The notes beneath the pieces were generated by a model. That model was not told where the DNA came from. It worked only from the letters and a program-made list of their open reading frames with translations, and ran no database searches. DNA of 64,000 nt from Cetorhinus maximus (Eukaryota), in NCBI RefSeq assembly GCF_964194155.1, contig NC_135880.1, positions 177,506,001 through 177,570,000 of the forward strand, given 5' to 3'. Position 1 is the first letter of the stretch. Each line of letters opens with the position of its first letter. Of the stretch, positions 1,443-64,000 are shown one piece after another. Made by a program: the position numbers and the translations under genes.

Positions 1443-2722
1443 ACTGGTTCCTCTGCCGTCGCATCTGTTCTGATGATGCCACTTTCAAAAACAGTTTCTC
1501 TGACATGTCTTCCTTTTTCCTTAACCGAGGTTTTCCACCCACGGTGGTTGACAGGGCCCTCAACCGTGTCCGGCCCATCTCCCGCGCATCCGCCCTCACA
1601 CCTTCCTCTCCCTCCCAGAACCATGATAGGGTCCCCCTTGTCCTCACTTATCACACCAGCCTCTGCATTCAAAGGATCATCCTCCGCCATTTCCGCCAAC
1701 TCCAGCATGATGCCACCACCAAACACATCTTCCCTTTACCCCCCCCCGGCGGCATTCCGCAGGGATCGTTCCCTCCAGGACACCCTGGTCCACTCCTCCA
1801 TCACCCCCTACACCTCAACCCCCTCCCACGGCACCCTCCCATGCAACCGCAGAAGGTGCAACACCAGCCCCTTTACTTCCCCTCTCCTCACCGTCCAAGG
1901 GCCCAAACACTCCTTTCAAGTGAAGCAGCATTTCACTTGCACTTCCCTCAATTTAGTCTATTGCATTCGTTGCTCCCAATGCAGTTTCCTCTACATTGGA
2001 GAGACCAAACGCAGACTGGGTGACCGCTTTGCGGAACACCTTTGGTCTGTCCACAAGCATTACCCAGACCTCCCTGTCGCTTGCCATTTCAACACTCCAC
2101 CCTGCTCTCATGCTCACATGTCCATCCTTGGCTTGCTGCAATGTTCCAGTGAAGCTCAACGCAAACAGGAGGAACAGCACCTCATCTTCCGACTAGGCAC
2201 TTTACAGCCTTCCGGACTGAATATTGAGTTTAACAATTTCAGATCATGAACTCTCTCCTCCATCCCCACCCCCTTTCTGATCCCCTTTTTTTCCAATAAT
2301 TTATATAGATTTTTCTTTTCCCACCTATTTCCATTATTTTTAAATGTATTTCCATCCATTGTTTTATCTCTACCTTTTAGCCTATTTCGATTCCTTCACC
2401 CCCACCCCCACTAGGGCTATCTGTACCTTGCTGGTCCTGCTTTCTGCCCTTAATTAGCACATTCCTTAGATAATATCACCACCTTCAACACCTCTTTGTC
2501 CTTTTGTCTATGACATCTTTTGGTTATCTCCACCTATCACTGGCCCTCTATCCAGCTCTACCTGTCCCACCCCCCACCCCCCTTAAACCAGCTTATATTT
2601 CACCTCTTTCCTATTTTTCCTTAACTCTGATGAAGAGTCATTTGGACTCGAAACGTTAACTGTGCTCCTCTCCGCAGATGCTGTCAGACCTGCTGAGTTT
2701 TTCCAGGTAGTTTTATTTTTGC
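1443..2722 (+). mobile_element. Penelope-like element, 5'-truncated, GIY-YIG endonuclease end plus 3' repeat with hammerhead
   Basis: RRICSDD...FLNRGFP linker, then CNRRRCNT...NLVYCIRCSQCSFLYIGETKRRLGDRFAEHL...HFN...LQPSGLN (frameshift near 1740). Flanked by a 12-bp TSD CCTGGATATTGC (1431-1442 and 2723-2734). Confidence 0.9.
2622..2661 (+). ncRNA. Minimal type I hammerhead ribozyme motif in the Penelope 3' repeat
   Basis: CTGATGA-A-GAGTC-ATTTG-GACTC-GAAACGTT-AACTG: intact core and stem II, palindromic ACGT stem III; the 5' strand of stem I has two mismatches. Confidence 0.7.
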
Positions 2723-2770
2723 CCTGGATATTGCTGATTCTTATCAATTGAGATACGAGGAGGCACAGAA

Positions 2771-3088
2771 TCCTTCTCCCGGCCGGCAGGGGGTGCTCTG
2801 GAATATCCTCCTCCCGGCCGGCAGGGGGTGCTTTGGAGTATCTTCCTCCAGGCCGGCAGGGGGCGCTCTGGAGTATCCTCCTCCCGGCCGGCAGGGGGTG
2901 CTCTGGAGTATCCTCCTCCCGGCCGGCACGGGGTGCTCTGCAGTATCCTCCTCCCGGCCGGCACGGGGTGCTCTGCAGTATCCTCCTCCCGGCCGGCAGG
3001 GGGTGCTCTGCAGTATCCTCCTTCCGGCCGGCAGAGGGTGCTCTGCAGTATCCTCCTCCCGGGCGGAAGGGGGTGCTCTGCAGTATCC
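2771..3088. repeat. GC-rich 35-bp minisatellite, about 9 copies, upstream of NDUFB6
   Basis: Unit GGGGGTGCTCTGSAGTATCCTCCTCCCGGCCGGCA recurs at 2786, 2821, 2856, 2891, 2926, 2961, 2996, 3031. Confidence 0.92.
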
Positions 3089-3204
3089 CCGGTGTGACGC
3101 AATCAGCGTGCGCCGAACTGTAACCCGGGCAGTTGTTGTCGCTCTGATGCCGATGTCCGAGTGACCGGGGCCTAGTTATTGCTCCGCTCCGCCAGTTTGC
3201 AGCG

Positions 3205-3387
3205 ATGCCTCTGGGTTACACGCCAGAGGAGAAGGCCCGGTTCCAGCAGCTGGTGAACCTGCGCCGCCGGTGGCTGAAGGACCAGGAGCTGAGCCCGCGC
3301 GAACCCGTCCTTCCGGCCGATAGCAAAGGGGCCGTAAGCCGGTTCTGGGAGGGATTCCTACAGCCGCGGAGCCTCTGGAGAATTTAT
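3205..3387 (+). CDS. NDUFB6: NADH dehydrogenase 1 beta subcomplex subunit 6, exon 1
   Basis: [37 protein letters not shown]...FWEGFL carries the NDUFB6 signature; phase-0 donor TAT|GTGAGT. Confidence 0.95.
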
Positions 3388-3464
3388 GTGAGTGAGTGAG
3401 AGCTGGGAGAGGGGAGAGGACTGACGAGGAGCTGTCACTCTGCAATGATAGGCCGGCAGGCACT

Positions 3465-13843: not shown

Positions 13844-13879
13844 CTGTACAAGATGAGACAGACATCGCGTTAAATCAAA

Positions 13880-14095
13880 AAGAAAAGTACTATGGATGCT
13901 GGAATCGAAGTAAAAACAACAGAAAATGCTGGAAAACATTCAGCAAGTCAGGCAACACCTATGGTGAGGGAATAAATTAACATTTCAGGTTGCTGCAGTT
14001 CTGATAAAGGGTCATCAACCTGAAACGTTAACTCTTTCTCTCTTCATAGATGCCTGACGTGCTGAGCATTTCCAGCATTTTCTGTTTTCATTGCA
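13880..14095. mobile_element. Inverted pair of Penelope-derived terminal-repeat fragments with a degenerate hammerhead
   Basis: ACAGAAAATGCTGGAAA...TTAACATTTCAGGTTG followed by CAGTT-CTGATAA-AGGGTCATCAACCT-GAAACGTT-AACT...TTTCCAGCATTTTCTGT. Confidence 0.7.
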
Positions 14096-15655: not shown

Positions 15656-18600
15656 GTAAGAGACCCAGGGGAATGGGGGCGGGGAGGGGGTTTGATTGGA
15701 GACTGAGGCCAACAACAGACCAGCCTGTCAGTGAGAATATCCACCGCCTGCAACCACTTGTGGAGCTGGGAGGTGACAAGGCAACAAAAAAAATACAAAG
15801 GCCAGATTTTTAAATCGAAACCCGAGCCACTGAACACAAGAATTGGGTTAATTAATTAAAATAATAACTGGGGTAATTCGATAAGATCATGACTGGTCTT
15901 ATTGTGGCCTCAGCTCCACTTTCCTGCCTTCCGAAGAAGGGTCATATTGGACTCCAGACATGCTGAATTTTTCCAACACATTCTGTTTCAGATGTCCAGC
16001 ATCCGCAGTATTTTGCTTCCCATTTCCTACTTTACACCCCCCATAAACCTTGATTCCTTGTCGATGAAAAATCCATCTATCTCAGCCTTGGATATATTCA
16101 GTGACCCAGCCTCCACTGCTCACTGTGGAAGAGAATTCCACAGCCCTCCGAGAGAAGTAATTTCTCCTAATCTCTGTCTTAAATGGGGGACCTCTAATTT
16201 TAAACTGTGTCCCCTAATTCCACAAGGGCAGACATCCTCTCAGCATCCACCCTGTCAAGTCCTGTCAGGACCTTATATATTTCAATAAGATCACCTCATT
16301 CTTCTAAACGCCAGTGGGTACAGGCCTATCTTTTCCTCATAAGATAACCCTACATCCCAGGTATCAATCTTATGGCATTCGATGTTGGTTTAGTTTTGAT
16401 TCCTACTTTGCTGGCTGTGGGAAAGTCCAGCTTAACTTTAAAATCAGGACCATTCAGGAGAACAGTTAGGAAACAATTCTTCACATAAAAGGTGGCAGAA
16501 GTGTGGAACACTCTCCCACAAACAGCAGTAGATGCTAGTTCAATTCATTTATTTTAAATCTGGGAAAATGATGGGTTTTTTTTGCTGGAGAAGACAAGGG
16601 TATAAAAAATATGGAGCTAAGGCAGCTGGATGGAGTTAAGTCAGCCATGATCTGATTGAGTGGCAGAACAGGCTCAGAGGTCTGAATGACCACCTCCTGC
16701 TCCTGGAGTCTGAATACAATGATTATTGCACAAGTAAACAAGTTGATTTATCTGTGTACATTTGAAGGTGTCAGGACTTCTTAAAAAAATGCATACAAGA
16801 CCCTGGACTTTATAATAGGCATGGAATACAAAAGCAAAAGAGTTATGTTAAACTTCTAATGCTGGTTAGTCACTTGGAGTATCATGTTCAAGTCTGAATA
16901 CCAAACTTTAGAAAAGGTGTCAAAGACCTTGGAGAGAGTGCAGAGGAGATTTAGCAGAATGACACCAGGGCTAGAATCTTACAGCACAGAAGGAGACCAT
17001 TTGGCCCTTGTGCTTGTGCCATTTCTTTGAAAAAGCTATCCAATTTATTCTACTACAGTTTACTTCTACACCACCCCCACAACCCTGCAAATTAGTCCTC
17101 AAATACATGTTCAATTGCCTTTGGAAAAGTTCCTGAATCTAATTCCACCCTTTCAGGTAATACATTCCAGACCTCAACAACTTTCTGAAGAAATTTCTCA
17201 TCTCCGACCCCGCCCTCGCCATTGCCCTCACCCCCGTCCTTGCCCTTGTCTTTTTTACTAATTATTTTAATTTCATGAATACTTTCAATCTCTGAATACT
17301 GATCAGTATGCCAGATGAAAAAGTTTCTTTCCCACTTGTTCAGTCAAAACCCCTTAATTTTGAATGCCTCTGTCCAGTCTCCCCTCAACCTTTTGCATTA
17401 TGATTTGAAATGCCAAGTTGACAAATTTACCAGTTGAATCTATTACTGCTTTGGAACTTGGCATCACTGCTTAGTTTGTTTGTCTAGTATTAAAAACAAA
17501 AGCTGCAGGTAACAACTTGGTAGACAATGAGGGGCTCCAATTACATGACGAGATTAGAGATGCAGGCATTGTTCTCCTTAGAGCAGAAATGGTTGTGGAA
17601 AGATTTAATAGAGGCTTTTCAAATATTATGGGTTTACTATGAGTAAATAGGGATAATGGCAGGGTTGGCAACCAGAGGACAGAGATTTAAGGTACAGAGC
17701 AAGAGAACCCAGTGTGAGATGAGAAGTTTTTAAGCAGCAGTTTGTTGTGTTCTGGAACGCGCTGTCTGAAAGGGCAGTGGAAGCAGATTCAATAATAACT
17801 TTCAAGAGGGAATGAAAGGAGAAAATTTTAGGACTTTAGAAGCACAACTATCTGGATAGTTCTTTTTTTAAAAAACCGGCACAGGCACAATGGGACAATT
17901 AGCTTTCTGTGCTCTGATTCTATGATTCAATGCAAGTATACCACAATATACATGCATTTATTGCATAAGAGGAGATGTGGATGCATGGATAAAAAGCTGG
18001 CTGGTAGGCAGCAAATAAATGGTTAGGCTGATGTGAATCACTGGGATGAGAAAAGCAATGGGAGGAGGATTGGACCCATATGTCAGTACTTTATCCAATT
18101 TTGTTCTCTATTATTTGAACACAACATAATAATAATATAATAATTTGCTAATGACACAGATATAGGGTGCGATAAACGAGATACAGGGCTTCAGATGTGC
18201 AATTTCCTGGAAAGCTCCAGTGCAGGTAGATAGAACCATGAAAAGAGTTAAAGACCTTTATAAATAGAGCCATTGATTACAATACTGATAAATTTGTATA
18301 TGGCAGTGGTTAGATCTTCCCCCTTACAGACTGGTCATCAAAACTATCAAGAATGCACAGTAAAAATTTGCTATGGTCATGTTGTCCATCAGAAATTACT
18401 TACTAGATATGGCTGCCATGAAACCATTTTAGTCACATACCAGTTTTATTAGAAAACTTCTTGCGCACACTCAGAAAATACAGGTAAATGCACTTCAGGG
18501 TTGTGTTTACTTAATATGGATCTACCAACATTGAGTAACCAAGAGAGTAGAGCATTCTCGACCAAAATACCCCTACGCTCTCCATGTATTAGCATTTTAC

Positions 18601-22145: not shown

Positions 22146-25100
22146 ATGTTCATGGGTCTCATTTACTAAAATACACATGAACATTGAGAATTTAAATTAA
22201 GTCTTATTGTTTTGTGAAAATGCCATTAAGCAGATTTTTAAAAATTAAATAACATTTCTTCTGTTTGATGGAGATATGTCCTACCTTTTACATGTGCACA
22301 GCAGCAAATCTTACAAATCTGCTTCTGAAGAGCCAAAAAGAAAACTAGACACTATAATCTCAGTTGAGTGATGCACAAGCATCATTTTGGTGCCATGCTG
22401 TTCCTGATCTTCTTTCTAATGGAAATGCAAGTTTCGTCAACCCCATAAATTTGAGTTTTATATCCATGAATAAAGATGGTTGGGTAACTTGCATTTGGCC
22501 AGAATTCTGTGTTTAGGGTGGCAACCTTGTACAAAAGAAAGATTGAATTTTGGTGCTGTATTCTACATAATGTTTTTGAAGGGAAGGCAAGATTTTATTG
22601 TTTTCAATAAACCTCAGTAAATCATAATGACAGAATTGCAGCGACATGAAAAATATTCCCATTGGCAAGTCTGTGCAAGTGTTAAAATATACTGCACCAG
22701 CTCTTCTCTCTGTTTCAGCAGGATAACCACTTTTAGCAATATGTGAAGGTAATGGACTCTGATGTCACAATAAAGTTTTAGAAATGTTCTCATGCAGCGA
22801 GCAAATAAACAGTCCTTTTGGTTCTGATATCTGGTTTTGACTGCAGTCCAGACTAGGGTGATGAAATTATCCTCTCTGCTACCTAGCAAAATTTTGCATG
22901 AAATGTGTTTGGGCAAATCTCGATCTAAATGTCTAGTGAACCCTCATCCGCCAAATTGGCAACCTCGCTGAGAGAAAATACACTCAGTTTATTAGTCAAC
23001 AGCTGGGGTGAAGCCTTAGGTCGAAATTAATCTCTGATCATAAGGTCTAGGGTTCAAAGGTTTAATCTGTCACAGTAAAATATTTCTGTAGTTGAGTTCT
23101 TACACAGGCAGTGGCTATATTGCTTTGCTGTACATTACCAGTTCAAAACCTCCATACAAACCCATAGTGTAGCATGTCTGTATTCCAGATGAGTCTGTAA
23201 AGTCAACGGTTGTACTATAGGAAAGATCCACCATGGTAACAACACATTGAACACTGGATGCATAACTGGGTGCTTTGTAACAACAACTTGCATATATACA
23301 GCATTTATAACGTAGGAAAACATCTCAAGGTGCTTTCCTTCCTAAGGTTTGCTTTAGCAAAGGCACAGGAAGAGAGAAGGTGGGAAACTCGATCACATTC
23401 TTTATAATAAAAGCAAAATACTGCGGATGTCTGAAGTAAAACCAGTAAATGCTGCAAAAACTCAGCAGGTCTAGCAGGTCAGCAGATCTCTGTAGAGAGA
23501 GAAAAAGATAACAATTTGAGTCCTTATGACTCTTTAGATCACATTCTTTATCTTGCTTCTTGGCAAGACTAAAGTACAGTGGTTGTGTGTGCAGCTTGGT
23601 GGTCTTTGTTTTTATTTAAAAAAGAGCAGATTTAGAATGTTTTCCAATTTGTATGTTGTCCTCAGCATTAATATGTTCTGTGTAAATGTTTACATTGACG
23701 GTGTTGGTTGCATATTCCAAGTGGTCTGGAATGGATTGAAGATCACATTGTATTTTTATTTGCTGCATGCAATTGAAATCACCAGCATTTCAATCCCTAG
23801 TGGCAACTCCACTGTCTATACATCCCCCTATGCACTGCATTTTTGTACTCCTTTCTCAATGTGGGCATCACTGGCAAGACCAGCATTTATTGTCCATGAA
23901 GTTGTTGATTAGCCACCTTCTTGACCTCTGCAGTCCATGTGGTGCATGTGCTCCCATAATTGCAGTTAGGTAGGGACTTGCAGAATGTTGAACCAGCGAC
24001 ACTGTAGGAATAGCGACAGGATGGTGGGGGAGGGGGACTTGCAGGTGATGGTGTTCCCATGCACCTGCTGCCCTTAGAAGTTGCAGGTTTGGGAGGTGCT
24101 GTCAAGCAACAACCACAAAGCTGCAAATCCTGACCTCAGTCTCAGCTATAAGTCATGCAGTTGTTGGAAATTTGGGACTGTGGGATGGGGAGCCAGCCAG
24201 CAAAGCTGATCTGCCTGTGAAAATCTTTAGACTTGTCTGGGTAATTATTTAGTCTGGAGAGCTGCAGGGTGTACAGGTTACCTAGAATTATGCAGAATAT
24301 ACAACGGATACACAATGTAGAAAGATGGGCAATTAAGTAATAGTAAACTTTTTTTTAAATGCTGATCTTTTTTCATTTCTAAAGATCTTGTTTTTGCATC
24401 AAACTTTCTAATCCTAGATTATTGCAACTCTCGTAACATGCAGAGAATTCCATACAGCAGAGCAACAAGCGTAACCATGTTATGCTGCCTCTTTCCACCT
24501 TTATCTCGCCCCCATCAGCATCTCCTTCCAATTCGTTCTCCCTCGTGTTTATCTGTCTTTCCCTTAAATGTGTCTTTGTGAGACGCCTCAACCACTCCCA
24601 GTGTCAAGTTTCACATTGTCACCACCCTGTGGCTAAAGAAGTTTCTCCTGAATTCCCTATTAATCAATAATAAATCTATTTTACATTGAAACTCTCCCAC
24701 TGGTGGAAACATCTCTAATTTCCCACATCAGAGAAAACAGCACCAGCCTGTTCAATCTTTCCTGATGTGTATAACTTCTCAGTTCTGGAATCATCCTTGT
24801 AAATCTTATTTGCACCTTCCCCAGTGCCATGGATATATTCCTTAACCATCCTACGCCACAGATAGTGTTGTCATAAATGGTACATTTGAGAAATGCAACC
24901 TGACAAAGTGTTATAGGTGGTGCTATGAAATTGCTTTATAAAGACAAGGCACAGTACATCAGCAAGTTACCTCCTATAAAGTACAGCAACATGTTGTACC
25001 CAGATCTTGTTCTATTATTACATTTTAAAAATGAGGAGGCCCAAACTGGTTGTGCTTGGGTGCGCACTGTAGTTCCTTTAAAAAAAAACTAACCTGGTTT

Positions 25101-32000: not shown

Positions 32001-34204
32001 CAAAAAGGTAATTGGATCCCAGATAAGACTGATTAAAGTGTGGAAGATGGGTTTGTATGTATGTAGTAAAATTGGAGAAAAATGGATAATGGGAGGAGCA
32101 GACTGCAGGGGGAAGGAAGCAGGAAAACTACATCTATAATATAAAATACTAGAAGTTTTTTTTTAAAATGGAAATGATATTTTTCATGTCCTCTATGCAC
32201 TTTACAGCCAATAAATTGATTTTGAAGTGTAATCAATCTTTGTCAGGAAACATAGCAGTCAGTTTATGCACAGCAGGATCCCACAAACCATTAAAATAAT
32301 GACTAGTTAGTCTTTCCTTTTGGAAGTTTTGGTTGGAGGATAAATGTTGACCAGGAGAAATCCTCATCTGCTCTTCAAATAGTTACTTCCACTTCAGAGG
32401 GCACTTGAGCTCTCATTTCACCTGAAAAACACCACCTTGGCTGATGCAGCACTCCCTAGGTACATTAGAATCATCAAAGTGCAGGAAATGGCTAGTGGGC
32501 AAGATTTTGTGCAACTCTTAACACTTACCCTAAATATATGGTTAAGTCTAGAACAGCCAACAAGGTTTATTGGTTTGGACAAGATCCTTTTACAACTCCG
32601 AGGATCAGTGGACTTATCAGACATGCCTGAAAGTTAAACATGGTCCACAAAAGGAAGGAAAGCAACACTCATTAAATCCAAATACAGGGAGCGTTATTCG
32701 TTTTTTTTAAACTTGAGCCAAGAAGAACCATTTCATGTGGCCTGGTGTCTTCTTTTTAATTCCACTTGAAACTTTGGTTTGTACAAGATCTAACCTAATG
32801 ACAATGTTTTGTGTTGGTGTTGCTATGCTAAGTTACATAGGCAGTTGGTTTCACATCAGGACGCCATTGGCAGAACAAGAGGACCAAAGAACCAAAGGTG
32901 ACGTGAGGAAACTGCTTTTGTGCAGCAAATGGTTAGTATGGTTAGAATGCACTGCCTGAGAGTTTTTTCTTTATTCTTCCACGGGATGTGGGCATCGCTG
33001 GTAAGGTCAGCCTGGCTTGCTAGGCCATTTCAGAGTCTGGATCTGGAGTCACGTGGGCCAGACCAGGTAAGGATGCCAGATTCCCTTCCTTTATGACTCT
33101 TCATCAGAGCTTCAGACTCCTCTTCTTCGGACTCGAAATATTGACTCTGTTTCTCTCTCCACAGATGCTGTCAAACCTGCTGAGTTTTTCAGCATTTTCT
33201 GTTTTTATTTTAGGCCTAATAGCCTTTTGTGCTGTAACCATTCTATGAATTACTTGAGTGAGACTTGAACCACTTGTTACCACTGAGCCAAGGCTGATGC
33301 CTAGGAATAATAACAAGTCAATGCTGGAGGGTTGCAGGTGGGAGTTACAGTGCAGTGGAAATTTAGGAAATGTGCCTAATTCCAGAAGATGGTAAATACA
33401 ACGTATAAGAGTGCGGAGTGTTTAGGAAAGGAAAAATCTGTAAGTTAAAGACATTGATGCTGTTTGAGGAGAGAGGGGGGGTGGCAGTGGAAAGTTACAC
33501 AATGAACAGCTCTAATTTGATATATATCTCATGTGAAAAATAATGTTAGCTACAATCCCTATTGACCAGAATTAAAAATTAGATGGTTTATGTTATCATG
33601 ATACAGCACAGAAGGAGGCCATTTGAACCATTAGTGCCTTTGCTGGCTTCTTGATAGACCAATTCACGTAGTCCCACTCCCTGTTCTTTCCCCATAGCCC
33701 GGTGTTGGTTTTCCCTTAAGTATTTATCCAAGTTGCTATTGAATTTTCTTCCTCCTGCCCTCTCAGGCAGTGCATTCCAGTTCATAACTCCCTGCGTCTA
33801 AAAGTTCCTTGATGTCATCTCTGGTTCTTTTGCCAAATATCTTAAATATTTTTCTGCTAGTTACCAACCCTCCTGCACTGGAAACAGTTTATCCTTATTT
33901 CCTCTATCAAAACCCATCTCGATCTGAAACACTTTGTCCAGAATCTCTTAACCATCGCTGCTCTGAGGAAGTGGCTAAGGAAGGGTAAGTGAAAGCAGGT
34001 AGGTTATTTTAGTGGGTGAACTTTAATCGACCAAAAATAAATTGGGACTAGCCCAGGTGGCTCAGAGTTCAAGTTGTAAACATTAAAGTGAGATGGCTTC
34101 ATGATGCAGTGGAGGCCACAAGAGAAGGCCCATGCCATGAATTTGGTAATGGTAGCAATCTAGACAACGTACCTGGAATGGAAGTTGGCCAGCATATGAA
34201 ATTT

Positions 34205-43885: not shown

Positions 43886-44211
43886 AGCACAAGACGGCTT
43901 TATCACGGGTGATATTTTGTTCCCCCATTTTGTTTTAACTTTTTAAATGGTGTGATTAAGTACACCGGTTTATGTTCATTTCAGCTATGTTTTACATGCA
44001 CAATTAAATGAGATTTTATTTTGTGCTATTGGCCTGAGTATGCTTCATTTGTTCTGTAGGTGCAGGGTAAGCCATTATGTAATGATGGACGTGTGTCTCC
44101 TGAAACTTAATTGCACAGAGCGTATGTTGGTGGCCAAGGGAACTGGTCCTCTCTAGGATCAGGTATGGAGCCTGCAGCCCTGGCATGTGGTGGTGGTTCT
44201 TATTTGGTAGG

Positions 44212-45409
44212 CTAGCTGAAGGAGTGTTGGATCAAAGCGTCCTGGGTGTCCCTGCCTCCCTGGAGGTGACCCAGGTCAGCATCCATGCTCTCAGCATTCT
44301 CCTCACTGTGTTCGTCCTTGAACTCACTACTGAATTCAACCTCTGTGGCCTACGCAGCTGCGTCAACATCCTCTTCCTCCACTGGGTCCCCCCTTGCCAG
44401 TGCCAGATTGTGCAGACCGCAGCAAGCAACCACTATCAGTGACATGTGCTCTGGGAGGTATTGCACTGTGCCCCCTGAACGGTCTAGGCATTGGAAGCGC
44501 GTCTTGAGAAGACCTATGGTATTCTACCACAGCCCTTGTGGAGGCATGGCTCCTGTTGTACCGCTGCTCAGCCTCTGTTCTTGGGTGGCGGAGAGGCATC
44601 ATGAGTCACCTTTTGAGGGGATAGCCCTTATCACCCAGCAGCCATCCATCCAGTCAGGCTGAATTACTGAAGAGCCTTGGAGCTGGAAGTGTCTCAGGAT
44701 GTAGGTGTCATGGGAGCTGCCAGGGTACCTTGCACAGACTTGCTGAATCTGCATTTTGTGATCTCACACTATCTGCATGTTCATGGAGTGGAACCTCTTC
44801 CTGTTGACAAAGGCACCCAGCTCACCCACTAGCACCTTGATGACCACATGTGTGCAGTCGACGGCACCCTGGACATGGGGGAACCCAGCAATCGCTGCAA
44901 AGCCTATGGCTCGCTCAGCCTGGCTGCCCCTGTCCATACAGTAATGAATGAAAGTCAATAACTGCCTGAACAGAGCTTCTGTCACCAGCTTGACGCAACA
45001 ATGGACAGCTGATTGGGAGACTCCACACAGATCCCCCACTGAGTCCTGGAAAGAGCCAGAGGGCCACTGGTATGGGGTCTCCACCCACACAGTCGGAGCT
45101 GATCTCAGGCCCAATAATCTAACAAATAGAGGTCAATATCTCCCTTGAGTGACGAAGTATCCTTCGGCATTGCACCTCGGACATATTGAGGTAGCTTCAT
45201 TGCCGCCTGTAAACCCTGACAGTGAGATAGTGCCGTCTTCTGTGGCCCCTTCCGCCTTGGACAGCCAGCTGGCCCTGACCCCCTTGTTCCGGCATCCCTC
45301 CTCCCACAGGTAGTTCCCCTGGAAGCTGCATAGGGACACCTGGCCTCCTCTTGCTTCTGCCCCTCTCTTCCTCAGAGTAGGTGCCACCAGCAGCGACCAC
45401 AGTCCCCAT
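44212..45409 (-). pseudogene. Harbinger (HARBI1-like) DDE transposase, disrupted
   Basis: GSFQ..VGDLCGVSQSAV; GFPHVQGAVDCTHV; FVNRKRFHSMNMQIVCD; YPGSSHD; LLGDKGY; EQRYNRSHASTRAVVE; CCGLHN; several frameshifts. Confidence 0.9.
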
Positions 45410-46386
45410 TACCAGGGCTATGGAAGGCTGTCTGAATACTGGAAGGGCCCACACGGCCTGAATCCTCCAGGGGCCTGGAAGACACCAATCAGTCATGAAA
45501 TGAAGCTTAGAAATGCTCAGAATGCAGCTTTGAAGCGAGATGAAGCTGTCCAGTTCACAAAATCAACCAGCAGCACACTATCGCCAAAAGTCCTCACAAC
45601 TCACATTGACAATGCTGCTGACCCTTTTTATCCCACCCGTGGATGAACTTTTGCAAACCATGGCCTGCCCGCCTGCCCATTTTGCCCTTGCAACGGCTGA
45701 AAATTCACACGGGCTATGTAAACTCGGAGACAATTGGTGTGTCAAGGGTCTTAACTGGCCTCTTAATTAATGGCGGGCACACCCCCATCTCCCTCATGTG
45801 CACGCCTAGCGAAATATCGTGAGAATGAGCGTTGACATTGTCAACACGCGTCATCTCACACTTGAGCGGGTCGGGCGTGCGCCTGCCTGCCAAGCGAAAA
45901 ATTCTGCCCATGGTCACTGCTTTTTTCTTTCATTGTAGAGTTGACTGTAATGCCCCAGGAACAGAAGTATGTCACTCAGCCCATTGAGCCTGTTCCACCA
46001 GTTAATCAGAGCATGGCAGATCAATAGCTTACCTCCATTCACCTGCTTTGGTTTAGTAACCCTCAGTAGCCTTGCCTAATAAAATCACATGTTTGGATGT
46101 ACCAGAACAAATTGTTGTTTTCCCAGTGGATCTCATGAAAAACTAAAATCAGCTGAATCCGCAAACAATGGAAAGATATTTTGGAGCTTGTTCAAGGAGC
46201 CAAAATTTTCCAATTGTTGGGTGAAGTTTAGGATTGAAATAGAGGAACAAGAGACCATTCAGTCCCTTGAGTCAGTTGCACCATTCAATCAGATCGTGAC
46301 AGATCACCACAAAGGCAATTAGGGATGGGCAACAAATGCCTGCCTTGCTAGGGACACTAACATCCCATGACAGAAAAAAAAGTCAC

Positions 46387-46589: not shown

Positions 46590-46955
46590 AAGATTTGTAG
46601 GAACAAGTGACTATTTAAAAAGTAATTTCCTTGGTTAGAAAAACTAATCAAAGGTTTACCTCCATATAATGAATATGGCCATTTTTACTTTCGATGGAGC
46701 TGTGGATGGAGGAAGATTAAATGGCATATATTCAATTATACGCAATATACATTAGTATATAGTCCCCATCACATGCTATGCTGAATCCTCATTAATTTAT
46801 ATTGCATTTTTTATATGACATGAACCTTTCCCCCATAAACTTGTTGTATGAATGAGCTTAAAGACATCTCCAGCCCTTACCCAAAATAAATCCATATATA
46901 CTAAGCAGCATACATACTTGTCACCACTCCTTACAGCCAACAGAGACTACTTTTA

Positions 46956-48005
46956 CAAAAACAGAATTACCTGGAAAAACTCAGCAGGTCTGGCAGCATC
47001 GGTGGAGAAGAAATCAGTTAACGTTTCGAGTCTTCATGACCCTTCGGCAGAACTGAATATAGTTAGGAGAAAGATGAAATATAAGCTGGTCTAAGGTGGG
47101 GGGGGCGGGGGGAGAGAGAAGTTGAGGGTGTGGTTATTGTGGAGATAAGCAAGCAGTGATAGGAGCAGATAATCAAAAGGTGTCACAGACAAAAGGATCA
47201 AAGAGGTGTTGAAGGTGGTGATATTGTCTAAGAAAGGTGCTAATTAAGAATGGAAGACAGGATACTCAAGGTACAGCTCTAGTGGGGGTGGGGTGGAAAG
47301 ACTAACAAAGTTTTAGTTTTAGATTTAAAAATAATGGAAATAGGTGGGAAAAGAAGAATCTATATAAATTATTGAAAAAAAAGGGAGGGGGGAGAAACGG
47401 GGTGGGGATGGGGGGAGGGGGGAGAAACGGGGTGGGGATGGGGGGAGGGGGAGTTTAAGATCTAAAGTTGTTGAATTCAATATTCAGCCCGGAAGGCTGT
47501 AAAGTGCCTAGTCGGAAGATGAGGTGCTGTTCCTCCAGTTTGCGTTGGGCTTCACTGGAACAATGCAGCAAGCCAAGGACAGACATGTGGGCAAGAGAAC
47601 AGGATGGAGTGTTAAAATGGCAAGCGACAGGGAGGTTTGGGTCTTTCTTGCGGACAGACCGCAGGTGTTCTGCAAAGCGGTTGCCCAGTTTGCGTTTGGT
47701 CTCTCCAATGTAGAGGAGACCGCATTGGGAGCAACGGATGCAGTAGACTAAGTTAGGGGAAATGCAAGTGAAATGCTGCTTCACTTGAAAGGAGTGTTTG
47801 GGCCCTTGGACGGTGAGGAGAGAGGAAGTGAAGGGGCAGGTGTTGCATCTTCTGCGTGGGCATGGGGAGGTGCCATAGGTGGGGGTTGAGGAGTAGGGGG
47901 TGATGGAGGAGTGGACCAGGGTGTCCCGGAGGGAACGATCCCTACGGAATGCCGTCGGGGGGTGAAGGGAAGATGTGTTTGGTGGTGGCATCATGCTGGA
48001 GTTGG
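46956..48005 (-). mobile_element. Penelope-like element, 5'-truncated, GIY-YIG domain open
   Basis: ORF 47455-47994: CPRRRCNTCP...NLVYCIRCSQCGLLYIGETKRKLGNRFAEHLRS; 14-bp TSD AGAGACTACTTTTA (46942-46955 and 48014-48027). Confidence 0.92.
47014..47056 (-). ncRNA. Hammerhead-like motif with variant core CUGCCGA
   Basis: Minus strand TCAGTT-CTGCCGA-A-GGGTC-ATGAA-GACTC-GAAACGTT-AACTGA; 6-bp stem I, 5-bp stem II with one G-U pair. Confidence 0.6.
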
Positions 48006-49249
48006 CTACTTTTAGAGACTACTTTTATCCTATCCATTTGTGTTGGCAATTAGAAGAGCTTTGATAGTGAATAAGGAAGACTATTGATGCTGGTTTGGGA
48101 ATTGGTGGCAATGTTATCAATATAAAATTGCCACAAAGTGAGTGAGAAGAAATGTTTTTATGCAGAACGCTGGACAGGTAGGTACTAGGTACTGAAGAGT
48201 CTGAACTGAATAGTCTCGGGTTAAAGAGTTTGGCCATTTAGGACTGAGATGAAGAGGAACTTTTCCACTCACGATTGTGAATCTTTGAAACACTTTACCC
48301 CAGAAAGCTGTGGATGCTCAGTCATTGAGTATATTCAAGCCTGAGATAAATAGATTTTTGAATTCTAAGGCTATTTAAGGATATTGAGATCAGGCTGAAA
48401 AGTATTATTGAGGCCAAAGATCAGCCATGATCTCACTGAATGGCAGAGCAGGCTTGAGGGACCATATGGCCTACTCCTGTTCCTATTTCTGATGAGACTG
48501 CAATGCTTTGCCACAGGCTGAGGTAAACTCCATTGACTGTTCTAAGGGAAAACTGAATAAGTATTTGAAGCAGAGGAAGATTCAAGGAGAGAACAGTGGA
48601 GTCAGTTTTGCACTGGTTTCACAAACAACCAGCATGGATGTGATGAACCAAAAAGCCTCCTTTTGCGCTGTAAACTTCTGTGTTTCTTTTAATTCAACTA
48701 GTGTGTTAGAATTTGGAATAAGACATCTTGACAAGGCAGGGTATAAAGGTTTATAAAGGTTCTCCCAAGTCCAGCTATGCAAAACCGCAAGCTGAAAGTG
48801 CTTGACAGATTGCCTTCATTAACCTGAAAATTCACCCAAAATATTTCAAGATTAAATGGAAATATTTAATCAAGTGGTAGAAGGAAAATTATTTCCAGTT
48901 TGATTACAGATCAGTAACAAAGGCGTTGAAGTTTGTTGAACTTGTCACTATATACACAGATTGTGGCTAATGATCTATTTGTATCGATTGCATAATAACA
49001 GGCAACAAATAGAAAGTTATAATATTGCAGAAGTTTTCCACAACTGATGCTGAGGTTCCTGAGATGCAGAATGATCTGGAAATATTATACTGAGATAGCA
49101 ATAGTCAAATAACCTGCAACTTAGAACATGTTGCAGCAGCTTGGGTCATCATGCAATGATCACTCTACATATGTAACTGTATACAACAATGCAAATTCCT
49201 GTTTCTCATTTGTATGCTGCCCCTTGGCAACAACATTTGCAGCAGAAAT

Positions 49250-52149: not shown

Positions 52150-52680
52150 AACTTCTAATTTCCAAAGAAGAGTCATATTGCACTCGAAACGTTAATTCCA
52201 TTTCTCTCTCCACAGATGCTGCCAGACCTGCTGAGGCTTTCCAGCATCCGCAGTGTTTTGCTTTTGTCCCTTGGCAACTTAATTGTTTTTGTAGGGACTC
52301 CCAAGAGCCTCCATTTGAAGAAAAATGCCTTTATCCCCCATCTTTTATTCTATTTTCAATCTTTTTCCCATCCCCTCCCCCCACAAGGGCCAGCTGTCAC
52401 TTCTTCATGTTGTTCTTTCCAGAGTGTTTACTCTTGTCCTGCTATTATCACATTCTGCTTTCTGACCTTAATGCCACCTCCTTTAGCCAGTACCACTATC
52501 ATTAACACCCCTTTGTCCTTTTGTCCATTACATCTCTGGCAATCTCTCCTTTGCCTCCACCTATCACTGGCTTTCTATCCAGCTTCACCTGCTCCACCCC
52601 CTTTAAACAGTATAAATTTCATCACATTTTTACTTCTCTTTAGCTCTGAAGAATAGTCATACAGACTCGAAACATTAAAC
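52150..52680 (+). mobile_element. Tandem Penelope terminal-repeat remnants with two hammerhead-like motifs; second repeat resumes at 55519-55590
   Basis: CCAAAGA-AGAGTCATATTGCACTC-GAAACGTT (52162-52193) and CTGAAGA-ATAGTCATACAGACTC-GAAACATT (52646-52676); the sequence between them resembles the 3' UTR of 1443-2722. Confidence 0.7.
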
Positions 52681-55518: not shown

Positions 55519-55904
55519 CTTTTTTTCCTCTCTATAGATGCTGTTAGATCTGCTGAGTTTTTCCAGCATTTTCTGTTTTTATTTTAGATGTCAAGTGTTC
55601 TTTGATCATCAAGAAAATTGGCACTCATTAAAAGGGAAAGGTTTTTGATTTTTCACTTGGTGCACCAGATAAATGAATAACTATGGGTTTTGCCTGAAAA
55701 GATCATTTGAGGGCAACTGCCCTGCAAGGTTGAGTTTGGCCACATCGTTCCCAAAGCTTTCCTGCACTGGGGTTTTCCTTGCCCCATGTCTGGGCCTATT
55801 GTAGACACATTGATAGAGATTGATAGCTTTGATTAGTCAAGAACTTGATCATTGTTTTATCATATGACTACCAGGATGGTAGAAGGTGAACCAGATGGAC
55901 AGAA

Positions 55905-56965
55905 CACATCCATTCAATCCACATGCTTGACCCTGAACTTCCGGTTCCTTGCCATTTTAATTCTCCATCCCACTGTCACTCTGACCTTTCTGTCCTGAGC
56001 CTCCTACACTGCTCCAGTGAAGCTCAAAGCACAGCACTACATCTTTTCATTGGTCACTTTACAGCCTTCCAGCCTCAACATTGAACTCAACAATTTCAGA
56101 TCGTAACCACTTCTTCCATTTTTGTCCGCTGTGTCTGCTGCCAATTCAATCTGGTCGCACAAGATGGCCACCAGCATCTGTCTGCGCATATGCACTGGTC
56201 TGTGGTCGTGCAGAAATCGAATGACCTCACTGCTGGAGCCTGCAGCCTGGAACTTATAGAATGGCAGAAGGGGAAAGAATGAGGACAAGTAATATAGTCT
56301 AACACCCACAGCAACCTACGATCCACTTACATTACTAGGATAGTGAGACAGAGCTTAGAAACACTGACCAACATGACTGCACTAAATATCCCACAAGGAA
56401 AAGATTTTAGTTTCCCGTCTGCAAATCCTTCCCTTCTAGCCCCCTGTAAAAGGAGTTTGCAAAATCTATCGCTGTCAGTCCGGGATGGAAATTCACAACA
56501 CTCTCTCCTCCTGCGACTTGGGTCAGTGATGCCTGCGCATGAGCTTTGCTGCACATTGCCCCCAATAAAAATAGTGGCCTTTAACCTGGGCCTACCATCA
56601 GCATACAACTACAACTGCACATGCACAGAGTTGCCAACAAACACAGCCATTTTTTCAGCTTTTGAAGATGATTTTGCCGCTTTTCTAGAGGAGTTTTACA
56701 CCTCTTCTTGACTTCTTTTTGTTTCTTTACTTGTCCCATTACCATCTCCTTTTGCCTTGTACCGTCATCCATTTTCTCATTTAATCTCTTCTGCCTTCCA
56801 CCCTATCACAGAAATGTCCTTTGTTCTTTTCTCCCCTCTCCCTTTCCCTCCCTCTGCACTCGCTTAAAACGTGTTAAATTCCTAACACTTCACAGTTCTG
56901 ATGAAGGATCATCGACCTGAAATGTTAACTCTGTTTCTTTCTCCAATGATGCTGCCAGACTGGTA
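55905..56965 (+). mobile_element. Old Penelope 3' end (GIY-YIG tail 55905-56110, about 550-bp insert, 3' repeat 56700-56965)
   Basis: Matches TGCCATTTTAA...TCCAGTGAAGCTCAA...TTACAGCCTTCC...AACAATTTCAGATC of the less-decayed copies. Confidence 0.75.
56893..56932 (+). ncRNA. Minimal hammerhead motif in RIG-I intron 1 (sense)
   Basis: CAGTT-CTGATGA-AGGATCATCGACCT-GAAATGTT-AACT: stem I and core intact, C>T in the stem III palindrome. Confidence 0.6.
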
Positions 56966-57179: not shown

Positions 57180-58215
57180 TATTGCCCTTGAGAAGGTGGC
57201 AATGAGCCACCTTCTTGAACCGCTGCAGTCCATGTTGTGTAGGTACATCCACAGTGCTGTTGGGAAGGGAGCTCACGGATTTTGACCCAGTGACAGTGAA
57301 GGAACTGCGACATAGTTCCAAGTCAGGATGGTGTGTGGCTTGGGGCAATAGAGGTCGCAGGTTTGGAAGATGGTGTCAAAGACGCCTTGATGAATTGCTA
57401 CAGTGCACCTTGTAGATGGTACACAATGCTGCCACAGTGTGTTGGTGGTGAAAGGAGTGAATGCTTAAGGTGGTGCCAGTCAAGCAGGCGGCTTTGTCCT
57501 GGATGGTGTCAAGTTTCTTGAGTGTTGTTGGAGCTGCACTCATCCAGGCAAGTGGAGAATATTCCATCACACTCCTAATTTGGGCCTTGCAAATGGTGGA
57601 CAGGCCTTGGGGAGGCAGGAGGTGAGTTACTCGCTGCGGGATTCCTAGCCTCTGACTTACTCTTGTAGCATCAGTAATTATATGGCTGGTCCTGTTCAGT
57701 TTATAGTCAATGGTAACCCCAGGATTTTTTGATAGTGGGGGATTCAGCAATGGTAATGCAATTGAATGTCAAGGGGAGATGGTTAGATTCTCTCTCGTTG
57801 GAGATGGTCATTATCCAGCACTTGTGTGGTGCGAATGCTGCTTGCAACTTATCAGCCCAAGCCTGAATGTTGTCCAAGTCTTGCTGCATATGGACATGGA
57901 CTGCTTCAGTATCTAACAAATTGTGAATGGTGCTGAACATTGTGCAATCATCAGTGAACATCCCCACTTCTGACCTTATGATGGAGGGAATGTCATTGAT
58001 GAAGCAGCTGAAGATGGTTGGGCCTAGGACACCACCCTGAGGAACTCCTGCAGCGACGCCCCAGGACTAAGATGATTGACCGTCAACAACCACAACCATC
58101 TCTCTTTGTGCTAGGTAGGACTCCAACCAGTGGAGAGCTTTCCCCTGATTCCCATTGACTCCAGTTTCGCTGGGGCTCCTTGATGCCACACTCGGTCAAA
58201 TGCTGCCTTGATATC
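57180..58215 (-). mobile_element. CR1/L2-group LINE RT fragment
   Basis: MFTDDCTMF...MQQDLDNIQAWADK; MEYSPLAWMSAAPTTLKKLDTIQDKA; HGLQRFKK. Confidence 0.85.
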
Positions 58216-59023
58216 AGTTCAGGAAGTATCAGTGGAGAAAGAAACAAAGTTAACGTATAGACCCTGATGAAGGGTCACCAACTTGAAATGCTTAACTCTG
58301 TTTCTCCATAGAGGCTGCCTGACCTGTGTATTTCCGGCATTTGGCTGATATGATGGATCAGATTATCTCCAGACTTGTGATGATATATTTCTGTAGATCA
58401 TCCAATTGTAAACAAACTTGTTAACTGCTAACTTGCCATTTCTTTCTTCAACCTTCAGAAAACAGCAGTCATTTAAACCCATTTAGCTAGAAGGAGGCTT
58501 ACCACCACACAATAGGCAATAAATGTAGACCAAATCCTGAGAATGATTTCTATTTTAAAAAACGTTCTGATGAAAGATTTCAACCCAAAATATTCTGCTT
58601 CTGTCTCTACAGATGCTGCCTGACCTGCTGAGTGTTTTCTAGCATCTTCTGTTTTATTTCAGATTTCTAGCATCTGCAGTACTTTGCTTTTGTCTGTGTA
58701 TTTGAACTCCTGTGGATTTTTGTTCAATTGCCCTCTTTTCATTAAACAAATGCTCCTCATCCCTTGTTTTGCCTTTTAAAACACACCACTTAACACTCAC
58801 CAACATTAAGTTGTATTTTCCATCTCTTCCCATTCCCTGTTCTGCTAAACTGCCCCTCCCATTAGAACTTTTACATACTCCCCACTTCAGCATATTAGTT
58901 TAAATCCCCTCCTCCCTGCCATTGGTCAATTTTACCTCCCCAAGTTGTATTACTTCAGTTAAGGTGAAGGTATTGCCTTCAATGTTACCTTCCTTTGCCC
59001 ACAACTGGTTCCTCCTGCACTGG

Positions 59024-61062: not shown

Positions 61063-61244
61063 GTTACACTGGTCTGAAGGAAGCCATTGAAACTGCTGAC
61101 TTTACTGAAATTGATAAACTGCAAGAGCCTAAAGCACTACTGGAACGCATTTCACAAACAATTGTTTCCAATATAAAGCCATGTGATGTTATTTTTCAAA
61201 TGTCATCGTGTCTCCTAATCAGGGAATGTGAAGAGATTAAACAG
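61063..61244 (+). CDS. DDX58: RIG-I exon 3 (CARD1 end and CARD2 start); gene continues beyond the window
   Basis: TTGCAG acceptor; (G)YTGLKEAIETADFTEIDKLQEPKALLERISQ...IKPCDVIFQMSSCLLIRECEEIKQ; 182 nt; CAG|GTATTT donor. Confidence 0.92.
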
Positions 61245-61802
61245 GTATTTCTTAAGGATTGAGTGACATGGGGAAGCTAGTTGGGTTGCCAACCCTCCAG
61301 GATTGTCCTGGAGTCTGCTGGGATTAATAGCAATCTCCTGGCAACTAGAATAAGCAATATCGAGTGAAAAATCAGAGGGGCATTAAAAAATTTTTTTCAT
61401 TTTCTTTGAACGCTTCTGTTATCAGCCTGCCAAGAGCACTTCCAATTCTGAGGCATTCTTGACTTTAATCGTAGCACCGCTGGCAAACATGCTTTGAGCT
61501 GTCTAGGCCTAAAGCCCTGGAATGAACTCCCTGAACCCCTCTGACTCTGTTCTTTAAAATGTTCCTTAAAATCCAGCTTTTTGGCCATTTGTCCTAATAT
61601 CTCCTTACGTGGCTCGGTGTCAAATTTTGTTTGATAATCAATCCCATGAAACACCTTAGGATGTTTTTTGCTACGTTAGCATAGAAACATAGGAACAGGA
61701 GCAGACCATTTAAGCCCTTGAACCTGTTCCACCACTCAATCAGTAAATCTATGCTGCACTCCCTCCAAGGCCAACATATCCTTCCTAAAGTGTGGAACCC
61801 AG

Positions 61803-62214
61803 TGTTAACAGAATCCAAGCGGGTTGGTGAAGTTGAAACCAAGAGACAGAACTTTTCTTCATCAAGAAAGTTTATTGACTTTGTTCAGCCTCACAGCTCT
61901 CCTCCCACACTCCCAGCTGTCCCCTATTTATACTCTTTTGAGTAAACAAATGAATAAAAAGGGGGGGTAAATTAACAAAATAAATTAAACAATTTAGGGG
62001 ACCAGTCCCTTAAAAGGGCACAGTAACAAAAAAGAAAAACCTTAAAGGAAACTTGACAAACTAAATCACAATATTGTTTTGGGGGTCAATGATGCACCCC
62101 AGCCCTTACAGTACCCACCGATCGCGGAAGGTCCCCTATTTATATGTGCTTAAAGTACTTAATTAAACAATGCCCTTCACCTGTGTATCTTAACAATATA
62201 ACATACTATTAATA
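61803..62214 (-). mobile_element. Short solo-LTR-like element inside a CR1 fragment
   Basis: Ends TGTTAACAG / CTATTAATA; 5-bp TSD CCCAG; minus-strand TATAAATA and AATAAA. Confidence 0.65.
61933..62130 (-). mobile_element. 198-bp Tx1 3' fragment nested in the solo LTR
   Basis: 14-bp TSD GTCCCCTATTTATA (61919-61932 and 62131-62144); minus frame FRDRWVL*GLGCIIDPQNNIVI. Confidence 0.75.
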
Positions 62215-63084
62215 CCCAGAGCTGCTCACAGTGTTCCAGGTGTGGTTTAACCACAGCACTGTGCAGTTGAAGCATGACTTCTACTCCCTTATATTCCTCT
62301 AAATAAAAAAGTCAACATTCTATTCAGCTTTTTTGATTATTTACTGTACCTGTTGATGGCATTTTAATGACCTGTATACCCGGACCCACAAGTGTCTTTG
62401 GACCTCCACTGTTTTTAGCTTTTCCCTTTCTCATCCTTTTTAGACAGCAGAGCACCTTGTACAATTTTCCAATCGAAAGGAACAATTTCCCAAATTGGGA
62501 TAACTTTGGAAGATGGTGCTTAGTGCATTGGCAATGTTCTCCCTAATTTCCTTTAACATCCTGGAATGGAAACCATCTGCTGCTGGGGATTAGGGGAGTC
62601 AAGAGTAATGGGGAGCAGGCAGGAAAATGGAGTCGAAGCTACGATCAGATCAGCCATGATTTTATTGAACAGTGGAGCAGGCTCAAGGGGCCAAATGGCC
62701 TACTCCTGGTGCTGTTTACGTTCTTAAAGACGCCACATAAATGCAAGCTGTTGTTGTTATGGGGGAATGGACTAGATGGGATAATAGGGCAAATTTACTG
62801 AAGTGGGAAGTATGGCAAATTTTGTTAACCCACCAGCAGTCTTTCCTAGTTGTTTATAGGTGTGAAAGAAGGGCAGACAGTTAATTGACAAAGTTCTGTA
62901 CAGAAAAATGTGAACCCACACATTTTAAAAGTAATAGAAGGAATTCAGCTTTAAGTGGAGCAGAGGGACATGGGTGTGCAGATTTAAAAATCATTAAAAG
63001 TGGCAGCAGCATTAGAGAAGGTAATTTAAAAAAAAACAATGGCCTCAACCATCACTGTAACTCCCTTCAACCCTAGATAAAAAC

Positions 63085-64000
63085 AAAAAGCTAAAAGCTA
63101 CTGCGGATGCTGGAAATCCAAAACAAAAACAGAATTACCTGGAAAAACTCAGCAGGTCTGGCAGCATCGGTGGAGAAGAAATCAGTTAACGTTTCGAGTC
63201 TTCACGACCCTTTGGCAGAACTGAAGCATAGTTAGGAGAAAAGTGAAATATAAGCTGGTTTAAGGTGGGGAGGTGGGGGGAGAGAGAAGTTGAGGGTGTG
63301 GTGATTGTGGAGATAAGCAAACAGTGATAGGAGCAGATAATCAAAAGATGTCACAGACAAAAGGATCAAAGAGGTGTTGAAGGTGGTGATATTTGTCTAA
63401 GAAAAGTGCTAATTAAGAATGGAAGACAGGACACTCAAGGTACAGCTCTAGTGGGGGTGGGGTGGAAAGACTAACAAAGTTTTAGTTTTAGATTTAAAAA
63501 TAATGGAAATAGGTGGGAAAAGAAAAATCTATATAAATTATTGAAAAAAAAGGGAGGGGGGAGAAACGGGGTGGGGATAGGGGGAGGGGGAGTTTAAGAT
63601 CTAAAGTTGTTGAATTCAATATTCAGCCCGGAAGGCTGTAAAATGCCTAGTCGGAAGATGAGGTGCTGTTCCTCCAGTTTGCGTTGGGCTTCACTGGAAC
63701 AATGCAGCAAGCCAAGGACAGACATGTGGGCAAGAGAACAGGGTGGAGTGTTAAAATGGCAAGCGACAGGGAGGTTTGGGTCTTTCTTGCGGACAGACCA
63801 CAGGTGTTCTGCAAAGCGGTCGCCCAGTTTGCGTTCGGTCTCTCCAATGTAGAGGAGACCGCATTGGGAGCAATGAATGCAGTAGACTAAGTTAGGGGAA
63901 ATGCAAGTGAAATGCTGCTTCACTTGAAAGGAGTGTTTGGGCCCTTGGACGGTGAGGAGAGAGGAAGTGAAGGGGCAGGTGTTGCATCTTCTGCGTGGGC
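63085..64000 (-). mobile_element. Penelope-like element in RIG-I intron 3 (runs off the window), near-identical to 46956-48005
   Basis: ORF 63594-63923 GIY-YIG (NLVYCIHCSQCGLLYIGETERKLGDRFAEHL); hammerhead-like motif at 63182-63224 with core CTGCCAA. Confidence 0.92.

Follow-up and report, generated by a model that had tools for sequence, protein, structure and literature searches.

The window considered here, a stretch of 64,000 nucleotides (nt) from Cetorhinus maximus (assembly GCF_964194155.1, contig NC_135880.1, positions 177,506,001 to 177,570,000 of the forward strand), holds many broken ends of a Penelope-like element, a retrotransposon whose pseudo-long terminal repeats (pLTRs) carry minimal hammerhead ribozyme motifs. 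While hammerheads in Penelope ends are already known, the departure in this genome is the replacement of core position 6 in the younger subfamilies. The canonical core (C3 U4 G5 A6 N7 G8 A9, G12 A13 A14 and UH) is present in older subfamilies, and A6 has been exchanged for U or C (U6, C6) in younger ones, including the window copies at 47014 and 63182. It is quite probable that these are minimal type I hammerheads in the pLTR of a Neptune-type element, represented in the window by truncated and partly inverted ends, with cleavage that is likely slow and confined to dimers and is predicted to be slower in the U6 and C6 versions.

Hammerhead copies in the window

The original prediction, made from the letters of the window, had listed 11 sites of a dispersed hammerhead family, and all of them carry hammerhead-derived sequence, most of it decayed. 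The prediction took these sites to be minimal type I hammerheads that belong to a Penelope-like element, form no stem III as monomers and would be cut at GUU; this is borne out. The window was searched with an nhmmer profile derived from 148 scaffold-matching segments, which returned 18 fragments, compared to none in the reversed window. A degenerate scaffold pattern gave seven matches in the window versus one match in total over 30 shuffles. Seven of the profile fragments lie beyond the predicted sites, at 1217-1183(-), 6373-6302(-), 13990-13888(-), 23534-23422(-), 55524-55601(+), 58256-58214(-) and 33115-33089(-), the last being the inverted half of a copy that had been described as split.

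Several details of the prediction had to be revised. Its consensus, CTGANGA together with GAAACGTT, is intact at only one of the 11 sites (2622), where stem I has two mismatches, and the statement that no copy is perfect in all helices fails for the copy at 47014(-), which pairs a 6-bp stem I and a 5-bp stem II and has the ACGT palindrome. This copy has full helices yet a CTGCCGA core (CUGCCGA in RNA), and the copy at 63182(-) combines the same helices with CTGCCAA. For the old type with the proposed register AGG-TC/GACCT, the alternative GGGTC/GACCC plus CpG decay fits better, the C11.1-G12 step reading TG in 24, CA in two, TA in two and CG in two of 30 genome copies of that type. The suggested comparison with Rfam found no hammerhead family in the window at E<=1; two weak matches to unrelated families were taken as chance.

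The carrier element

In full-length copies the hammerhead motif is located in the pLTR. The unit leads from the hammerhead through a conserved segment, an optional tail of about 40-45 nt, a short leader, one open reading frame (ORF) for a reverse transcriptase (RT) and a GIY-YIG endonuclease, and a 3' untranslated region (UTR) to the next hammerhead 3.3 kb on, with the ATG about 147 nt past the cut site. For example, two hammerheads of the same sense lie 3,305 nt from each other in locus L099, and in L081 the pLTR, hammerhead, tail and ATG follow one another in that order. An 827-aa open frame at L062 matches RVT_1 (E=1.9e-6) and GIY-YIG (E=0.001), both slightly under the curated cut-offs, and open frames of 925 codons were found in two copies (L101 and L103) via the 5' ORF region of the family. 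The closest named relatives of the element protein are shark proteins, at 64-67% identity. Within the window, the end of the GIY-YIG ORF lies approximately 400 nt before the hammerhead in three copies, and an older ORF end precedes a fourth. The hallmarks of an endonuclease-bearing (EN+) Penelope-like element are all found, namely a single ORF with RT and C-terminal GIY-YIG, pLTRs in partial tandem, inverted neighbours and an optional 3' tail.

Between the RT and the endonuclease, the translations contain a CX4CXXC linker. A CX2-5CxxC linker at this place is reported to mark Neptune and also Nematis elements (PMC8557442). The carrier appears to be a Neptune-type Penelope-like element, although the linker alone is compatible with Nematis as well. 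In L081, an internal duplication of about 300 nt lies within the 3' UTR (400-820).

Replacement of core position 6

Genome-wide pattern counts cover the 3.99-Gb genome, and the exact-scaffold pattern leaves positions 6 and 7 free. It detects 31,564 exact scaffolds, with a count of 0 in all four controls; A6 is present in 8,897, U6 in 11,951 and C6 or G6 in 10,716 (by subtraction), with at least 9,106 exact scaffolds having the C6 core CTGCCGA. Seventy-two percent of exact scaffolds therefore do not have the canonical A6, and motif searches requiring CUGANGA overlook about that share of the intact scaffolds in this genome. A core-free pattern yields 81,023 genome matches against 10 in the control. 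Of the predicted abundant self-cleaving RNA family, the abundance is confirmed; the self-cleaving part does not stand as written, given that the window copies are truncated or decayed, that most exact scaffolds are without A6, and that no peak of insertion ends occurs at the cut.

Since such exact patterns are biased towards young copies and hold the remaining core bases constant, two checks without this bias were added. Copies chosen by their upstream UTR alone read CTGCCGA in 29 of 30 cases and CTGCCAA in one, which rules out decay as the origin of CUGCCGA. The other check is a 1-Mb sample taken irrespective of motif from one region of one contig (C1, 1.0-2.0 Mb), which contains 137 copies, 90 of them core-spanning; five copies of the oldest type were set aside because their spacing differs, and 85 were analysed. 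Among these, C3, U4 and U16.1 are each kept in 84, G5, G8 and A9 in 82, and A13 and A14 in all 85, with A15.1 also in the range of 82-85. G12 (74 copies) and G16.2 (70) show mostly CpG-type changes. Position 6, by comparison, is A in 35, U in 25, C in 20, G in three and a gap in two. At H17, 65 copies have U and 20 have C. A subfamily with a GUC cut site and U6 or C6 cores occurs in this sample (H17=C in 20/85) and at L073, L137, L185 and L206; some of its copies alter stem I yet retain a wobble pair.

Order of the subfamilies

A tree of the UTR, with the hammerhead excluded, was obtained from 120 copies; the other 145 of 265 had too little upstream homology or a core that could not be read. 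It arranges the copies by core type as a ladder (CTGAAGA, CTGATGA, CTGTTGA, CTGCCGA), with several rearranged copies on long branches. In the 1-Mb sample, nearest-neighbour identity is 0.93 for A6, 0.98 for U6 and 1.00 for C6, and the oldest type has A6 in 26 of 30 copies. Since the ages of the subfamilies are ordered in this way, position 6 would seem to have changed from A to U to C in successive waves.

Among contigs 80% alike from organisms A, B and D, whose runs are guessed to be RNA, position 6 is mostly U and position 17 mostly C (GUC). These contigs, which inform neither starts, strand nor cleavage, suggest that U6 is shared beyond this genome. In run X5, a 154-nt contig with a depth of 6,269 over window positions 46970-47055 has a hammerhead of the CUGCUGA/GUC type; the 68 nt in front of it contain a second 5' half that resembles that of a hammerhead.

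Stems and fold

The copies have the architecture of minimal hammerheads: there is no stem III, a palindrome occupies positions 15.1-16.1, an extra base follows A9, and the G10.1-C11.1 pair is present. Because stem III is absent, a monomer cannot form the active site. For C6 copies, a dimer fold via ACGU comes to -20.7 kcal/mol, about 5 kcal/mol above the computed minimum of -25.6. Stem pairing was scored on 56 copies picked across subfamilies (616 cells), and 85% of the cells are paired, reaching 96% in stem II, compared to 19-42% in slid-partner controls; pair 18-30 is G-U in 25 copies, A-U in 19 and G-C in nine. Covariation of the stems, which had been proposed as a check, is present to a modest degree. 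Changes on both sides occur in 20 cells versus 10 after shuffling, a type of count that kinship inflates, and one compensatory event, from U-A to C-G, is found in the youngest branch. Among the first 100 C6 matches listed, that pair was read by eye as C-G in 70, U-A in 29, U-G in one and a mismatch in none.

Insertion ends and short copies

The short insertions, of about 100 or 140 nt, frequently start at the 5' edge of the hammerhead, and some have target duplications. Insertions end on the 3' side in two zones, at about 63 and at 100-110 nt beyond the cut site, which hold 40 and 32 of 73 copies (72/73). Counted from the cut site, 19 of the 5' starts of 73 younger copies are located at -40..-31, none at -60..-41 and two at -3..+2. 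In the better-referenced subfamilies of the 1-Mb sample, eight starts fall at the stem I edge versus four in the next 60 nt upstream (p=5e-5), and at other loci, chosen in part because the core was complete, the corresponding numbers are 17 and 24 (p=2e-5). The idea that insertions begin at the cut site was abandoned, as there is no such start peak, and the missing peak makes it likely that the templates were copied uncut. The CAGT context at the stem I edge is taken here to resemble an initiator. A candidate splice donor (CAG/GT) about 48 nt past the cut was dropped, older subfamilies being without the GT.

The 58 copies that start at the stem I edge comprise 18 head-to-head and 40 solo copies. 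Exact duplications of 9-16 nt flank six of the 40 solo short copies (shuffled mean 0.025), and where a clear duplication of at least 9 nt exists, only 1-3 nt separate it from -33. The empty-site test was clear in three of 58 candidates, with overlaps of 7 and 4 nt and a 2-nt gap; most candidates were without a homologue in the sequence set. The 1-Mb sample contains 18 head-to-head pairs and seven same-strand neighbours within 4 kb, irregularly spaced, among its 90 core-spanning copies, and no tandem array of non-coding units with complete hammerheads was found among the window copies. Head-to-head junctions, tails and duplications are known for Penelope-like elements (PMC3846280).

A proposed slow ribozyme and its rivals

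On the simplest reading of these data, the ribozyme would be slow, with a conserved structure, and the element would not require its cleavage to insert. According to this model, the element RNA would begin at stem I, and reverse transcription would start internally, at either of two downstream sites. If it started at the 5' copy of such a site, the cDNA would cross the uncut hammerhead, stop at the 5' end of the RNA and measure 100 or 140 nt; such short cDNAs would yield the short copies as well as the head-to-head pairs. The fold and most core bases would be under selection in source elements, and because fast self-cleavage would be unneeded for insertion, position 6 would be free to change from A to U to C in waves. 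The swap of A6 for U or C would likely slow cutting. Pairing via ACGU could bring together two hammerheads of the same transcript.

A number of results weigh against this model. The peak of 5' ends in the old subfamilies may be inflated, their references diverging upstream; a second cluster of starts lies near -63..-73; only two of 57 ORF-side alignments begin at -35, several extending further upstream; and 34 of the 40 solo short copies are without an exact duplication of at least 9 nt. The UTR tree is midpoint-rooted, with neither support values nor an outgroup, and the nearest-neighbour identities along its ladder (83, 92, 94 and 98%) are medians that hinge on an uneven sampling depth per class. 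Pairs with changes on both sides number four versus 3.2 after shuffling (195 of 500 shuffles were as high), reflecting few evolutionary events, and single-copy folding is weak relative to shuffles (z from -1.56 to +0.98 in seven copies). In addition, the first 60 nt past the cut site show about the same conservation across subfamilies. Conservation is therefore not specific to the core, and a role in protein binding or as a promoter could be what is under selection. The UTRs of one old subfamily and the young one diverge by 22% (52/238), and a rough calculation puts the chance of 12 unchanged core positions at that divergence at about 0.05. The start cluster at -63..-73 sits just inside a C-rich tract (L124, L126, L129 and other young copies).

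Other explanations differ in what they assume about catalysis. The hammerhead might be catalytically dead in the U6 and C6 waves and kept as a folded scaffold, a promoter or an RT-binding sequence, a tentative possibility that agrees with the twofold replacement of A6, the cut site devoid of an insertion-end pile-up and the equally conserved downstream segment. Hammerhead mutants of the anole element likewise still insert, and no RNA-seq reads end at its cut site (PMC11167929). A dead scaffold is harder to reconcile with the retention of C3, G8, G12, A13, A14 and GUH in all subfamily majorities (H17 is U or C in 85/85), with the position of G8, G12 and G16.2 in CpG steps, which are lost by decay from genomic copies but kept in the source elements, and with the slow cleavage of a natural A6C hammerhead, which works well in Mn2+ (PMC7151607). 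Just as tentatively, the most successful recent Penelope waves of this shark lineage may have tuned the hammerhead down stepwise (A6 to U6 to C6) while keeping the fold and the catalytic guanines, because copying would require an RNA that starts with the ribozyme intact and uncut; cleavage would then occur only once the element protein or a metal such as Mn2+ switches it on. If true, the subfamilies would form a dated natural series for testing the role of Penelope hammerheads. It is quite unlikely that all versions are fully active in vivo through rescue by the element protein or dimer geometry, with double cleavage freeing a 3.3-kb unit that is circularised as the template. Copies that stop at -35 need a template end there plus an intact cut site, whereas a circle would be read past this point, and cleaved linear RNA would give +1 ends, which are not enriched. 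The circle is nevertheless in keeping with the presence of one ORF between two same-sense hammerheads, with the computed closeness of the C6 dimer fold to the minimum, with the anole hammerhead, which cleaved only with protein (PMC11167929), and with a circle model proposed earlier (PMC4209133).

The remaining alternatives concern the origin of the short copies and of their 5' edge. In the short copies, the 5' edge and the two 3' ends are defined and target duplications occur, as would be expected if they were a self-standing non-autonomous family, SINE-like or retrozyme-like, with transcripts of its own, and pLTR-derived retrozymes have been reported in vertebrates including one chondrichthyan (bioRxiv 10.64898/2026.07.22.740005). 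Such an origin is nonetheless very unlikely. Every subfamily, the oldest and the youngest included, has short copies with its own diagnostic letters. The oldest type has 5' ends staggered to about -315, and three of 30 genome copies, along with the window copy at 56893, extend into an endonuclease gene of the same orientation. Head-to-head pairs (18) outnumber same-strand neighbours within 4 kb (seven), unlike in tandem retrozymes. As the subfamily letters are shared and longer copies run into the endonuclease gene, the short copies are better read as cDNA products of the autonomous element, probably short cDNAs of its RNA, and of the predicted short non-coding derivatives the discrete class exists but not as a family of its own. 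It is conceivable but unlikely that the -35/-33 edge marks a 3' splice site instead of the start of transcription. A pyrimidine tract and AG stand just before -33 in 11 of 11 subfamily references (YAG in 10), and the intron of D. virilis Penelope ends at the 5' end of helix I (PMC4209133, PMC2377424). This AG, however, also belongs to stem I, and the clear duplications leave only the 1-3 nt before -33, so that no upstream exon has been copied and a transcription start is favoured over a splice acceptor. No joint ending at the stem I edge was seen among the examined contigs, which is weak evidence.

The function of hammerheads in Penelope-like elements has been called unclear (PMC8557442), and cleavage is dispensable in vitro (PMC11167929). 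The tens of thousands of copies in this genome record successive source elements that changed a hammerhead base described as highly conserved and nevertheless spread. If the U6 and C6 versions are slower but not dead, attenuation would have been tolerated or favoured.

Comparison with known systems

Minimal hammerheads have been described in the pLTRs of metazoan Penelope-like elements, among them Xena, Poseidon and Neptune elements of fish (Cervera and De la Pena 2014, PMC4209133); monomers are inactive and dimers cut weakly (PMC4209133). The copies described here resemble these metazoan hammerheads in being type I without stem III, in the palindrome at 15.2-16.2, the short helix I, the extra base between A9 and 10.1 and the G10.1-C11.1 pair, and also in their pLTR position, the many solo copies and the opposite-strand pairs. 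They differ in the core: the only variant named in the covered part of that work is U3-A8, whereas most intact scaffolds here are U6 or C6. Sharks are unnamed in its text and the two supplementary files covered (PMC4209133). Judged by title and by a review (PMC6765202), a study by Lunse, Weinberg and Breaker of small hammerhead variants of Penelope-like retrotransposons, reported to cleave as dimers, involves the same association and dimer model.

A natural C6 with the remaining core intact is found in the A6C hammerhead of phage Bcep176 (PMC3088659, PMC7151607). That case is a single rare variant, whereas C6 here is fixed in a subfamily of at least 9,106 exact copies, within a minimal dimer-type fold and after a U6 stage. 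The A6C change is expected to break one or two hydrogen bonds, with a rate under 0.1 per min (PMC3088659), and cleavage is much reduced in Mg2+ and largely kept in Mn2+ (PMC7151607). A literature search by title and abstract, with subscription papers mostly outside its coverage, found no shark Penelope hammerhead with a change at position 6, and by title nothing on A6U in hammerheads.

The Anolis Poseidon element PAc (Frangieh et al. 2024, PMC11167929) shares the two 3' ends or optional tail, the pLTR hammerhead and, apparently, an uncut template. Two internal RT start sites that make its tail have been shown in vitro, and insertion in vitro was unaffected in hammerhead mutants (PMC11167929). 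PAc differs in belonging to the Poseidon clade and in an ORF that starts inside stem II, compared with the ATG about 147 nt past the cut, the tail of about 40-45 nt and the Cys linker, as in Neptune and Nematis elements, of the present element. Non-LTR retrozymes (bioRxiv 10.64898/2026.07.22.740005) are similarly non-coding, hammerhead-bearing and pLTR-related, but consist of tandem units each with a complete hammerhead, while the copies here are solo or head-to-head.

Features of the window

Table 1. Penelope-like copies and hammerhead-derived features in the window
Feature	Position	Strand	Remarks
5'-truncated, frameshifted Penelope-like ORF end (late RT region, Cys linker, GIY-YIG endonuclease)	1457..2246	+	tblastn with L062 protein, residues 564-827, 83-91% identity; Pfam GIY-YIG E=7e-4, under curated cut-off
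Hammerhead, canonical core CTGATGA (C3 at 2627), stem II GAGTC/GACTC, two stem I mismatches	2620..2665	+	predicted cut after 2657; placed among U6 copies in UTR tree
Conserved downstream pLTR segment, up to first (short) 3' end	2666..2729	+	
Head-to-head insertion, oldest subfamily	13878..14091	both	+ arm 13997-14091 begins at stem I, core CTGATAA (G8 lost); inverted arm 13990-13878
Decayed copy	15929..16018	+	GAAACGTT strand and cut site deleted
Short copy (23534-23406), absent from the first list	23391..23551	-	15-nt direct repeats at 23551-23537 and 23405-23391, read from the sequence
Inversion-split copy	33089..33213		5' half of hammerhead inverted, 33115-33089 (-); 3' half 33128-33213 (+)
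Young 5'-truncated copy	46955..48006	-	endonuclease ORF end 47961-47458, 3' UTR, hammerhead, short 3' end; Pfam GIY-YIG E=2.9e-5; 92-95% identity to many genome copies over ~1,050 nt
Best-paired hammerhead, 6-bp stem I, 5-bp stem II, ACGT palindrome, core CTGCCGA (C6)	47014..47056	-	predicted cut between 47020 and 47019; 61-nt identity at 8 other genome places (40 candidates scored)
Decayed short copy, core CCAAAGA	52156..52268	+	
Older copy, core CTGAAGA, G10.1 lost	52455..52678	+	homology ends 2 nt past cut site, where a LINE remnant starts
Old endonuclease C-terminus, upstream of 56893 hammerhead, same sense	55893..56103	+	tblastn 56-66% identity
Oldest-subfamily hammerhead, core CTGATGA, stems CpG-decayed	56894..56961	+	~200 nt of upstream UTR common to other old copies
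Decayed head-to-head pair	58211..58364		58256-58211 (-) and 58264-58364 (+)
Decayed short copy, long 3' tail	58564..58691	+	
Young copy with long 3' tail, running beyond window edge	63075..64000	-	hammerhead 63224-63182, core CTGCCAA (C6; G8 lost at CpG); endonuclease 63998-63597; locus L104, evidence for this copy, carries ORF residues 470-692

Position 48006 was rejected as a fixed 5' end, being merely the truncation point of that copy; other loci extend further. A 35-nt repeat array occupies 2731-3158, directly after the 3' end of the copy at 2622. The LINE remnant at 52679-55245 (+) is broken, has RVT_1 and zf-RVT matches, and starts 2 nt past the cut site of the 52642 hammerhead.

Two further regions contain open frames. 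At 41937-45562, a fragment with a Myb/SANT-like domain is accompanied by opposite-strand frames similar to a Harbinger transposase; the one frame tested had no Pfam match. A frame of 1,091 codons at 25224-28499 (+) encodes an N-terminal RING finger (Pfam E=2.7e-9) and a Ser/Arg-rich region, and is assumed here, from its resemblance, to correspond to the main exon of TOPORS.

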